Positions 16,916 through 19,092 of a stretch of 42,938 bases of DNA are shown here, piece after piece. Source of the stretch: a virus (Duplodnaviria; Heunggongvirae; Uroviricota; Caudoviricetes). The notes under the pieces were generated by a model. It was given only the letters and a program-made list of their open reading frames with translations. It searched no databases and was not told where the DNA came from. Each line of letters opens with the position of its first letter. Positions within the stretch are counted from its first letter, which is position 1. The position numbers were made by a program, and so were the translations under genes. The stretch covers positions 1-42,938 of the IMG/VR virus record IMGVR_UViG_2541047938_000003; one strand, 5' to 3'.

Positions 16916-17605
16916 ATGAACAGTCAGCAACTGGAATACGTACGTCAGCAGCTCATTGTGGCGACCGCAGACCTCAGCGGGGCGACGAAAGGGCAGCTGG
17001 TCGCTTTCGCCGAGAACGCTCAATTCACCGCGACGGCGCGCAGCCGGGGGCGGAAGAAAGTCTATGACGCGCAGAAAAAGCGCATGGTTAACCCCGACGG
17101 CCCGCCGATGAGCGGCAGTCAGTCACGCGCCAAGGGCTCGTCAATCGCGCTGGTGAGTCCGGTAGAGTTCGGCACCGCATCATGGCGCCGCGCTGTCCTG
17201 TCTCTGGAAGACCATCAGAGAGCATGGTTGCTCTGGACCTACAGCGACAATATCTGCTGGGAGCTCCAGGAGACGATTGTCCGCTGGGCGTGGGAGCAAT
17301 TCAACCAACAATTTGCAGGTGTGCGCATTGCAAAGAAAACGGTAGATCGCCTGCGTCAGCTCATCTGGCTGGCGGCTCAGAATGAAAAAGCAGATATTTC
17401 AGGCAGGGAAGGCTGCTTACGTTATGCGCCAGCTTCTATGATCGGAATTAAACCCGATAACTGGAGCCATAACTATTCTGGCTACTGGCGGGCTATGGGG
17501 GAAATTTTCCAAGGATTGGACAGACAAGCTTTGCTGACGGTTTCTCGATCACGTTCACAACAAAAAACGACTTTTTCGCGGCATGGTATTGCAAAAGTCA
17601 ATTAA
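16916..17605 (+). CDS. Putative late-gene antiterminator (Q-like)
   Basis: 229 aa, last gene before terminator/tRNA/lysis region; family resemblance is memory-based and weak. Confidence 0.5.
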   Translation: MNSQQLEYVRQQLIVATADLSGATKGQLVAFAENAQFTATARSRGRKKVYDAQKKRMVNPDGPPMSGSQSRAKGSSIALVSPVEFGTASWRRAVLSLEDHQRAWLLWTYSDNICWELQETIVRWAWEQFNQQFAGVRIAKKTVDRLRQLIWLAAQNEKADISGREGCLRYAPASMIGIKPDNWSHNYSGYWRAMGEIFQGLDRQALLTVSRSRSQQKTTFSRHGIAKVN

Positions 17606-17671
17606 ATAGCATATATTTCATGTAAATCTGATATCGTCGCCATAGCTTCGTAGGTCGACAAAGAATTAAGA

Positions 17672-17696
17672 GCCTCGCCATCGTGCGGGGCTTTTT
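17672..17696 (+). terminator. Rho-independent terminator (candidate tR'-like)
   Basis: GCCTCGC-CATCGT-GCGGGGC stem (one G-U pair) followed by TTTTT. Confidence 0.55.
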
Positions 17697-17703
17697 CATT
17701 TCA

Positions 17704-17778
17704 GGGTCAGAAGCACAGCGGTTGTGCGTTCGGCTGTTAACCGAATGGTCGAAGGTTCGAATCCTTCCTGTCCCGCCA
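17704..17778 (+). tRNA. tRNA-Asn-like gene (anticodon GUU), phage-encoded
   Basis: Hand-folded cloverleaf: D-stem GCAC/GTGC, anticodon stem TTCGG/CCGAA with loop CTGTTAA, T-arm GAAGG-TTCGAAT-CCTTC, 3' GCCA; one U-U mismatch in acceptor stem. Confidence 0.55.
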
Positions 17779-17813
17779 AATTCGCCGGTCTAGTTCAGTG
17801 GCAGAGGTGGTAA

Positions 17814-18239
17814 ATGCCGAGCAAAGATTACTATCTTAATCGAAGGGCTAGGCTTGCTAAGGCCGTGGAAAAGTTGGGTGGTCGTTGCGCGAGTTGCGGA
17901 TCCGAATATTCGCTTCAGTTTGACCACATAGACCCTTCCACCAAATCAGCAAATGTAAGCGAGATGCACTATCACTCAGATTCGGTGTTTTATGCTGAGG
18001 TTGAAAAGTGCCAACTACTATGTTCTGCATGCCACATTCAGAAAACCAAATTTGACCTTAGCTACTTAGTAGCTGGTGAGCTGAATGGTATGAGCAAGCT
18101 AACAATGGACAGCGTCCAGTTCATCAGAGAAAACTACATTCCACGACATAAGGTTTATGGAGCCAGAGGGCTAGGGAGAATGTTTGGTGTAACACATCAA
18201 ACAGTGCTTTCAGCCTTAAATGGCGAAACCTGGAAATAA
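17814..18239 (+). CDS. HNH homing-type endonuclease
   Basis: CASCGSEYSLQFDHIDP ... CQLLCSACH matches the HNH zinc-finger nuclease pattern; AT-rich; flanked by tRNA-like sequence. Confidence 0.75.
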   Translation: MPSKDYYLNRRARLAKAVEKLGGRCASCGSEYSLQFDHIDPSTKSANVSEMHYHSDSVFYAEVEKCQLLCSACHIQKTKFDLSYLVAGELNGMSKLTMDSVQFIRENYIPRHKVYGARGLGRMFGVTHQTVLSALNGETWK

Positions 18240-18656
18240 GCTGCGCGTCAGAGGTTCGATTCCTTTGCCCGCTCCAGTAAAAGCTTTCCAGTCTGCGATG
18301 ATGGGTTCCCCGGAGTGACTGGAAAGCGACCTGGTTTTGAATGGGCGCTGCTTTTTGCAAAATTGCTGTGTGAAAATACTGACCTTTGGGTTCAGCGCTC
18401 ATCCAAAAGCATCACGTGAATTCACCAACGCTCATGTACTCTCCAGGAAACAATAAGTGATTCTGAAAAGTTCCGGTTAGATATTGCCCCGGTCACCGGA
18501 TGATTTTATCTTTTGGTTCGTGGTGAATCCCCCTATGCGGCGGGGCGTCCAGTCAAACTTTTTTGTCCAGGTTTGTTTGCGCGGAACTAGTCGGCTGGGG
18601 CTGTTCCACCGGGAGGCACCCGGCGCCACCTCCTTGACGGTATTGTTATTTTTCAT

Positions 18657-18683
18657 GCCTGTTCGTCCGAGCAGGCTTTTTTT
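18657..18683 (+). terminator. Candidate rho-independent terminator
   Basis: GCCTG-(10 nt loop)-CAGGC followed by seven T; short stem so moderate. Confidence 0.4.
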
Positions 18684-19092
18684 GCCCGCATTATCTTCAT
18701 TGAAAACTGGCAACTCAGAGAATCATCCAAATTAAAAAAGCAGCAACGAGAGCGATTACTAATACATTCTTCGCTTTTTCTCTTCTGCTGGCCTTCACAA
18801 AAGGATTCACTATCCGGCAGTGGCTACACACAAGTGATTCTGGGTTAATTAACTTTCCGCAGTAGGGGCAGGGCTTGATAATCATTGGTACTAATTAAGT
18901 TGTGAGAACGTAGTCTCATTTAACCACATTTATCGAGTTGTTTTACTAATGGTCTAGTTATTTCAGACATATTCATCAATTTCAGGCTCACGGGAATCAT
19001 CCGCTACGTGCTTTGTTGATAAATCCAGCCCGTGAAGCCTGACCCTTTTCAAACACACACACAGCGCCATCCGAAAAATCGGAGGTGAGGCT

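Follow-up and report, generated by a model that had tools for sequence, protein, structure and literature searches.

SegB of phage T4 is a GIY-YIG homing endonuclease encoded in the T4 tRNA cluster that cuts inside tRNA genes and drives its own inheritance; it recognizes a 27-bp site around the T-loop motif of tRNA genes and reaches nearly 100% inheritance in crosses (PMC2330249). With its recognition site in tRNA genes, SegB spreads itself and flanking tRNA-region DNA in mixed infections, and its expression is thought to be coupled to tRNA processing. The window analyzed here, a stretch of 42,938 nucleotides that comprises positions 1 to 42,938 of the IMG/VR Caudoviricetes record IMGVR_UViG_2541047938_000003, contains an HNH endonuclease gene that is likewise a free-standing endonuclease gene in a phage tRNA cluster and is likewise missing from close relatives. 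SegB belongs to the GIY-YIG superfamily, whereas the window protein is an HNH protein, and the segB gene lies between two intact tRNA genes, whereas the window gene lies inside a tRNA gene and destroys it. The host phages also differ, since T4 is a virulent T-even phage and the window derives from a temperate lambdoid phage, and activity has been demonstrated for SegB but is predicted for the window protein.

Phage T5 encodes the F-TflI/II/IV endonucleases in its tRNA region (PMC2330249). They are like the window protein in being small HNH-family enzymes encoded among phage tRNA genes. T5 is a virulent phage with a large tRNA array, unlike the temperate phage of the window, and we know of no report of a T5 gene that splits a tRNA gene. 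In phages, nuclease genes are found at the edges of exchanged DNA (PMC10448857). Mycobacteriophages and other large phages carry HNH endonuclease genes in their tRNA arrays (PMC6409571, PMC5966550), and those of mycobacteriophages have been linked to the diversity of the tRNA repertoire (PMC6409571). The association between HNH gene and tRNA array is the same as in the window, but these genes are usually intergenic in long arrays, unlike the window gene inside a tRNA gene. A free-standing homing endonuclease that splits a gene is mobE in nrdA of Aeromonas phage Aeh1, where, as in the window, the endonuclease open reading frame (ORF) is lodged in a gene without an intron or intein. The two halves of the Aeh1 nrdA product still assemble into an active enzyme, whereas the window tRNA-Thr, without its anticodon arm, cannot function. 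Lambdoid and Stx phages carry tRNA clusters downstream of Q, such as ileZ-argN-argO of 933W. The 933W cluster has the same position as that of the window, between Q/tR' and the late genes, and its Q-dependent expression is presumed; its isoacceptors differ from the window-type Asn, Thr, Gly or Arg, and in the window one member of the cluster has been invaded by an endonuclease gene.

The HNH gene interrupts a tRNA-Thr(UGU) gene, which can be reconstructed base by base from the following elements.

17784 to 17805, plus strand: 5' remnant of tRNA-Thr(UGU), 22 nt, GCCGGTCTAGTTCAGTGGCAGA, identical at 22/22 positions to the start of the intact tRNA-Thr.
17806 to 18239, plus strand: inserted cassette, 434 nt, consisting of GGTGGTAA and the 141-aa HNH ORF (17814-18239 including the stop codon).
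18240 to 18271, plus strand: 3' remnant of tRNA-Thr(UGU), 32 nt (GCTGC to GCCCG), identical at 32/32 positions to positions 38-69 of the intact tRNA-Thr.
18272 to 18276, plus strand: CTCCA, a 3' end of the tRNA-Gly(UCC) type, joined to the Thr remnant at the common TGCCCG.

The intact 75-nt tRNA-Thr(UGU), which reads GCCGGTCTAGTTCAGTGGCAGA-ACGGCAGCCTTGTAA-GCTGCGCGTCAGAGGTTCGATTCCTTTGCCCGGCACCA, is found in Enterobacter phage ENT1 (locus L002, starting at 1756) and in the prophage of E. coli M37H (locus L014, starting at 1376). At the equivalent position these relatives have the tRNA order Asn-Gly-Thr (ENT1) or Asn-Thr-Arg (M37H), with no HNH gene. The 5' remnant holds the 5' strand of the acceptor stem, U8-A9, the 5' strand of the D-stem, the D-loop and the first two nucleotides of the 3' strand of the D-stem, and it is separated from the upstream tRNA-Asn by the same 5-nt spacer (aattc, 17779-17783) that occurs in the uninterrupted relatives. 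The cassette stands in for 15 nt of the tRNA-Thr, ACGGCAGCCTTGTAA, which correspond to the last two nucleotides of the D-stem, G26, the 5' strand of the anticodon stem and the complete anticodon loop. Its right boundary is ambiguous by 3 nt because the cassette and the sequence that it replaces both end in TAA, and GGTGGTAA at its left end completes the GAGGTG ribosome-binding site of the HNH ORF. The 3' remnant retains the 3' strand of the anticodon stem, the variable loop, the T-arm and the first six nucleotides of the 3' strand of the acceptor stem. Because 15 nt including the whole anticodon loop have been replaced by the 434-nt cassette, the window tRNA-Thr(UGU) is a pseudogene. It lacks a contiguous D-arm and anticodon arm as well as acceptor pairing, and neither ARAGORN nor Rfam calls a tRNA at the split gene.

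The first-pass annotation of this DNA had proposed that a homing endonuclease was inserted into or beside a tRNA cluster and left a remnant, and it recognized a tRNA-like 3' end at 18250-18276 for which it found no matching 5' half. Comparison with the related phages, which have an uninterrupted tRNA-Thr at the same position, establishes that the HNH gene is an insertion and decides for "into", with both halves of the tRNA-Thr remaining. The 5' half that had been overlooked lies directly upstream of the HNH gene, at 17784-17805. The tRNA origin of the 3' fragment holds, as 18240-18271 is the 3' part of the tRNA-Thr of ENT1 and M37H, and 18237-18268 scores as the 3' part of a tRNA against our own profile of 162 phage tRNAs (nhmmer E = 0.021). 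It is not, however, a single tRNA end, since its last five nucleotides come from tRNA-Gly(UCC), and this chimera had also been missed. The structural description is secure: tRNA-Thr harbors an HNH gene and ends in a Thr/Gly chimera, and the neighboring tRNA-Asn is intact. Comparison of the loci further makes it quite likely that this is a free-standing gene of the homing type that inserted into a phage tRNA-Thr(UGU) and has been spreading among the tRNA clusters of lambdoid phages.

The assignment of an HNH endonuclease gene after the tRNA-Asn, already made from the ORF, agrees with two matches of the 141-aa product of 17814-18239, to Pfam PF01844 (HNH; 23.4 bits, cut-off 21.4) and to phrog_4234 ("HNH endonuclease"; 1.5e-21). 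The motif CxxC...DH...CQLLC..CH is invariant at C25, C28, D37, H38, C66, C70 and H74 among 14 homologues with identities down to 37%, so that, judged from the sequence, the HNH catalytic motif (beta-beta-alpha-metal) and the zinc cysteines are intact. An AlphaFold2 (AF2) model with a pLDDT of 87 has an N-terminal helix, an HNH core and a C-terminal three-helix domain. The protein is a candidate two-domain enzyme that may recognize tRNA-gene DNA. A sequence search of the PDB returned only a 13-bit match to the HNH protein 5h0m, and an NCBIfam search gave nothing meaningful for this protein. Across 11 alleles the mean dN/dS is about 0.2, which indicates purifying selection on the HNH ORF, and decayed copies also exist, with an internal stop codon in locus L026 and a truncation in L035. 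This mixture of intact and decayed copies resembles the life cycle of a homing endonuclease.

Empty sites, in which an uninterrupted tRNA-Thr shares its left or right flank with HNH-bearing loci, were found in ENT1, in the M37H prophage, in E. coli OW1E2 (L015) and in locus L123. The left flank of the window is identical to that of the uninterrupted M37H locus at 263/301 positions. In all 27 other full-length copies examined, the cassette is joined to the tRNA at the same two points (...AGA|GGTGGTAAATG and TGGAAATAA|GCTGCGCG), with single-base variants in a few, and yet the neighbors of these 27 copies are varied. Upstream lies a tRNA-Asn of the window kind (type A), a very different tRNA-Asn (type B), a tRNA-Gly or a tRNA-Phe, and downstream lies a tRNA-Arg, a Thr-type flank or a Gly-type flank. 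One identical 426-nt coding sequence allele occurs in three combinations of flanks. At the type-B loci the 5' remnant comes from a different tRNA-Thr allele, GCTGGTTTAGCTCCAATGGTAGAG, and the left flank is identical to that of the uninterrupted L123 at 299/301 positions. This upstream flank is matched by 835 records, most of which, among the matches listed, are annotated with tRNA-Asn and tRNA-Thr, and hundreds of E. coli genomes carry it with the two genes adjacent; the matches end just within the left edge of the cassette, and the intact allele is common in E. coli prophages. Point changes are scattered through the T-loop, T-stem and CCA of the 3' remnants in several loci (L022, L023, L024, L029 and L033), as expected for a dead gene.

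A single genome, GCA_010994105.2, carries two otherwise unrelated prophages (L004 and L005) that share a block of about 1.35 kb with 100% identity. The block starts exactly at the left junction of the cassette in the D-arm and ends about 65 nt into the holin gene. Because the left flanks have only about 22 imperfectly matching nucleotides at this junction, a break-stimulated event is a likelier origin than chance recombination, and we regard it, from the sequences, as the more plausible one. In one of the two prophages the holin gene in which the block ends is truncated, and there the block is joined to a second copy of the 3' end of Q and the isrJ leader of the other prophage (L004 4332-4555 against L005 2665-2888), which is 99.6% identical. 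This permuted arrangement suggests illegitimate recombination or recombination between tandem copies.

Under the homing interpretation, the Q-dependent late promoter would transcribe the gene together with tRNA-Asn. In the lytic cycle or on prophage induction, lambdoid phages that are co-resident or co-infecting would have their uninterrupted tRNA-Thr alleles, or a site close by, cut or nicked by the enzyme, with the C-terminal helical domain probably providing sequence recognition. Repair that uses the HNH-bearing copy as its template would then bring the cassette, along with the flank downstream of it, into the recipient. The donor would be immune because its own site is disrupted. Such a function, in which endonuclease-free tRNA clusters are cut and the gene is copied in during repair, appears well supported by the population evidence and by precedent. 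The gene combines an intact motif, a presence/absence polymorphism, the same site in varied contexts and the lack of an intron or intein, which is the pattern expected for homing endonuclease genes. The gene that it interrupts encodes an RNA.

Several observations weigh against this interpretation. Cleavage, the target and biased inheritance are all predicted, and that the enzyme actually homes is suggested by sequence comparison. We searched for a pair of filled and empty sites that are nearly identical on both flanks and found one-sided matches only; because no two-sided pair was recovered, mosaic recombination after a single ancient insertion could explain much of the diversity of contexts. 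The filled type-B loci bear the type-A 3' half of the donor, which fits co-conversion but fits generic recombination equally well. Rarity is a further point: only 4 of 5426 complete E. coli genomes have the element, yet Asn-Thr clusters that look susceptible are common. Homing endonucleases of the free-standing kind often cleave some way off from the gene that encodes them, and the target may therefore be other than the anticodon/D-arm region of tRNA-Thr. Finally, a Foldseek search of the AF2 model against the PDB gave no significant match (best E = 0.22). The top matches below significance (E between 0.2 and 3) were the HNH domains of T5 SciA, Cap5, ZRANB3 and T4 endonuclease VII, together with helix-turn-helix proteins; they fit the predicted domains of the model but prove nothing.

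Some of these points would also suit a nuclease gene that is not mobile, a "moron" that was inserted once, serves another role such as superinfection exclusion, host DNA degradation or defense, and reached its various contexts by the shuffling of lambdoid modules. The missing matched pair and the rarity of the element in the face of many potential targets can both be read in this way, as can the dN/dS value, which fits a function useful to the phage. The region is, moreover, an established mosaic hotspot, with a chimeric tRNA-Gly in HK639 and a chimeric tRNA-Thr in OW1E2. We nevertheless consider this explanation unlikely, since the left edge of the identical L004/L005 block lies exactly at the cassette junction, which would not be expected without a break there, and since distant homologues are again found at tRNA genes or tRNA fragments. 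The near relatives M37H and ENT1 do without the gene, and a role as a component of a defense system was considered and rejected, as the PADLOC match is weak (15.5 bits). Similar-sized HNH proteins serve the terminase in HK97-like phages, which raises the case of a packaging-associated partner of the terminase in some cos phages. This has very little to recommend it here: the gene lies between Q and the lysis genes, the lysis cassette separates it from the terminase in matching loci, it occurs alongside different terminase types (Terminase_2 and Terminase_6N), and its absence from M37H and ENT1 is again contrary to such a role.

The retention of both ends of the tRNA-Thr could instead mean that the HNH gene belongs to a self-splicing intron or similar element whose removal restores the tRNA, and group I introns are known in bacterial tRNA genes (PMC2330249). 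The structure of the locus leaves this idea effectively refuted and its probability close to nil. The tRNA has lost its anticodon loop and the 5' strand of its anticodon stem, which are thus not merely separated from the rest, and a ribozyme would not fit into the 8 non-coding nt of the 434-nt insert. No intron could therefore restore this tRNA-Thr. In addition, Rfam contains no intron family that matches at E ≤ 10, ARAGORN recovers no tRNA-Thr, the acceptor strands in the window do not pair, and the scattered mutations of the 3' remnants in other loci are contrary to a restored gene. A split or trans-joined tRNA was ruled out on the same grounds, there being no anticodon loop and no non-coding space. 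Another thought is that the remnants are kept as signals for processing or stability of the HNH or late mRNA, for instance as an RNase P/Z or 3'-end protection element. Remnants are present in every copy examined, the T-arm still folds, and for the SegB and T5 F-Tfl genes it has been suggested that tRNA processing controls how the endonuclease is expressed (PMC2330249). We find this improbable, as the changes in the T-loop, T-stem and CCA across loci have the appearance of neutral decay, the 37-nt remnant does not fold better than shuffled sequences do (z = -1.4), and insertion alone accounts for the retention. The insertion of a homing-type gene into tRNA-Thr remains the explanation that we prefer.

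The Thr/Gly fusion at the end of the 3' remnant has a history of its own. The remnant ends in GCCCG-CTCCA, whereas a true tRNA-Thr ends in GCACCA, and pairing between its two acceptor strands has been lost. The tRNA-Gly of locus L016 ends in ...TGCCCGCTCCA and is followed by the same downstream sequence as in the window. From the T-arm onward, and through the next 200 nt or so, the window matches a prophage tRNA-Gly(UCC) of E. coli MS 115-1, a gene that resembles E. coli glyT, in its 3' end and in the flank downstream of it, and the same stretch also matches phage HK639. E. coli OW1E2 has an uninterrupted tRNA-Thr with the same chimeric end and a right flank that is identical at 299/300 positions, and other HNH-bearing loci (L009, L012 and L021-L034) keep the true GCCCGGCACCA end. 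The fusion is thus an event separate from the HNH insertion, and it reflects recombination between conserved T-arm/acceptor sequences of neighboring tRNA genes. In OW1E2 (L015 1167-1240) RefSeq annotates a 74-nt tRNA-Thr whose acceptor 3' strand is GCCCG-CTCCA and which is one nucleotide short; a normal acceptor stem is probably impossible, and this gene may be a pseudogene that was called as a tRNA by mistake. HK639 (L001, about 1614-1688) has a chimeric pseudo-tRNA-Gly with a 5' half like the tRNA-Gly of ENT1 and a 3' half identical to that of the MS 115-1 prophage. The halves are joined in the anticodon loop and both the acceptor and the anticodon stems are unpaired, which makes this tRNA-Gly a non-functional chimera; ARAGORN makes no call for it and the HK639 record has no annotation there.

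The tRNA-Gly-type end is followed by a hairpin.

18283 to 18327, plus strand: hairpin with perfect 11-bp arms, formed by the inverted repeat 18283-18293 / 18317-18327.

This perfect repeat had been seen before, and it folds stably (-23.3 kcal/mol, z = -3.96). In HK639 (L001 1695-1739) one base pair has changed on both sides and another has changed to G-U, so that the stem is preserved, and this suggests structural conservation, as RNA or DNA, of the hairpin downstream of the tRNA-Gly-type end. The hairpin is part of the downstream block rather than of the HNH insertion. Rfam STnc100 is matched over its full length (18495-18687, 71.7 bits, E = 5e-15) between the tRNA remnant and the holin gene; this match ends in a strong terminator-like hairpin at 18657-18676 and lies within the 1.35-kb block that travels with the HNH gene.

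The locus as a whole is an E. coli lambdoid prophage in which the tRNA cluster lies between the Q antiterminator/tR' and the lysis genes. Three features precede the split tRNA-Thr.

16916 to 17605, plus strand: late-gene antiterminator Q, 229 aa, an ORF annotated as "bacteriophage antitermination protein Q" in the E. coli L6-21 record.
17621 to 17699, plus strand: short isrJ-like leader RNA that ends in a hairpin and U-run terminator (Rfam isrJ, 68.7 bits at 17621-17694).
17704 to 17778, plus strand: intact tRNA-Asn(GUU), called by ARAGORN and matching the Rfam tRNA family with 63.9 bits (gathering score 29).

Positions 17600-18450 of the window are 100% identical to the chromosome of E. coli L6-21, whose RefSeq record annotates only Q, tRNA-Asn and an "HNH endonuclease" (WP_001568783.1) here and leaves the tRNA-Thr remnants unmarked. 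The Q gene, whose counterparts in loci L005-L007 carry PF06323, marks the locus as a late-operon leader. A sigma-70-like promoter is predicted at 17589-17617, just before the start of the isrJ-like RNA, and the terminator that follows the leader can be read directly from the sequence. This layout fits a lambdoid late leader, and the isrJ-like RNA is most likely the pR'-tR' transcript that is read through by Q, with a putative tR' role for its terminator. Rfam isrJ is described as a "Salmonella sRNA" family, and it resembles the short late leader of lambdoid phages (a 74-nt RNA here).

The tRNA-Asn begins 4 nt past this leader and is the single tRNA that ARAGORN calls over the whole window. The first-pass annotation had folded it by hand into a cloverleaf with anticodon GUU and a U-U mismatch in the acceptor stem, and ARAGORN and Rfam now agree with that assignment. 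Its minimum free energy fold is a cloverleaf whose sole unpaired position is U4·U69 in the acceptor stem, the discriminator base is G, and the CCA end is encoded. Compensatory changes occur at 16/19 consensus pairs among eight phage tRNA-Asn genes. With its cloverleaf, its GUU anticodon and a score over the family threshold, the gene has the predicted properties of a functional tRNA. The tRNA-Asn of L123 (991-1065) differs in its D, anticodon and T arms but has the same acceptor stem, GGGUCAG/CUGUCCC, including U4·U69. Because the mismatch is kept in two otherwise different prophage alleles, it may be a selected feature rather than damage.

The exact HNH protein is indexed in 465 blocks of public assemblies, and the hosts of cluster members are E. 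coli, the Enterobacter cloacae complex and Salmonella Tennessee. At the ten places examined the gene lies between Q and the holin gene, and the Q genes belong to three unrelated families. A contig scan with one genome per species found no relative, and a tblastn search of 50,697 deposited phage genomes found no protein at least 60% identical; consequently, no isolated phage with the insertion is available. Literature searches turned up no description of an HNH insertion in this tRNA-Thr.

Identity among homologues drops steeply from 98% to 58% and then to 45% or less. The 58% homologue (L036) resides in a 15-tRNA array of an uncultivated phage, with an orphan tRNA 5' fragment, GCTCCTATAGCTCAGTTGGTAGAGC, before it and an intact tRNA-Thr(UGU) directly after it, with no gap. 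A 40% homologue (L040) has an intact tRNA-Ser(UGA) on one side and a tRNA 3' fragment on the other, and before a 38% homologue stands an orphan tRNA 5' fragment that is broken at the same D-arm position. Among the more distant homologues in IMG/VR, tRNA genes occur within 1.2 kb of the HNH match in 26 of 63 loci. In nine of these 26 the ORF ends within a few nucleotides of an intact downstream tRNA, or 10 nt inside it; the downstream tRNA is Lys in five cases, Tyr in two, and Gln and Thr in one each. In L061, L096, L104, L107 and L110, the HNH ORF extends 10 nt into an intact tRNA-Lys, and its stop codon (TAG/TAA) coincides with positions 8-10 of the tRNA. Relatives with less than 60% identity that were found by tblastn come from Mycobacterium, Streptomyces, Stenotrophomonas and large Escherichia phages, mostly from large tRNA arrays. 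In most of the distant homologues the similarity is confined to the N-terminal HNH half, and the C-terminal domain is a different one, rich in Cys.

In three lineages, an orphan tRNA 5' fragment with the same break position stands directly before the ORF. Intact tRNA genes that might travel with the endonuclease are also seen, with the order fragment, HNH and tRNA-Thr(UGU) in L036 and tRNA-Ser, HNH and fragment in L040. A tentative and rather doubtful reading is that the window protein and its 58%, 40% and 38% homologues form one clade specific for tRNA genes, with the D-arm/anticodon-stem junction as its ancestral landing site and with some members accompanied by a resistant intact isoacceptor. 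If this is true, the clade would drive the gain, loss and replacement of phage tRNAs both in the temperate lambdoids of enterobacteria and in large virulent phages.

As an example of a mobile nuclease gene in a phage tRNA cluster, the window is a clear and fairly ordinary case, and it leaves the view of how homing endonucleases work unchanged. Less common is the destruction of a temperate phage's tRNA gene by an endonuclease gene lodged within it. With matched empty and filled alleles, the locus provides a base-by-base record of a selfish nuclease that inactivates a phage tRNA gene, and it exposes tRNA-Thr remnants that current annotation misses. It also offers a mechanism by which the tRNA sets of temperate enterobacterial phages may turn over rapidly.

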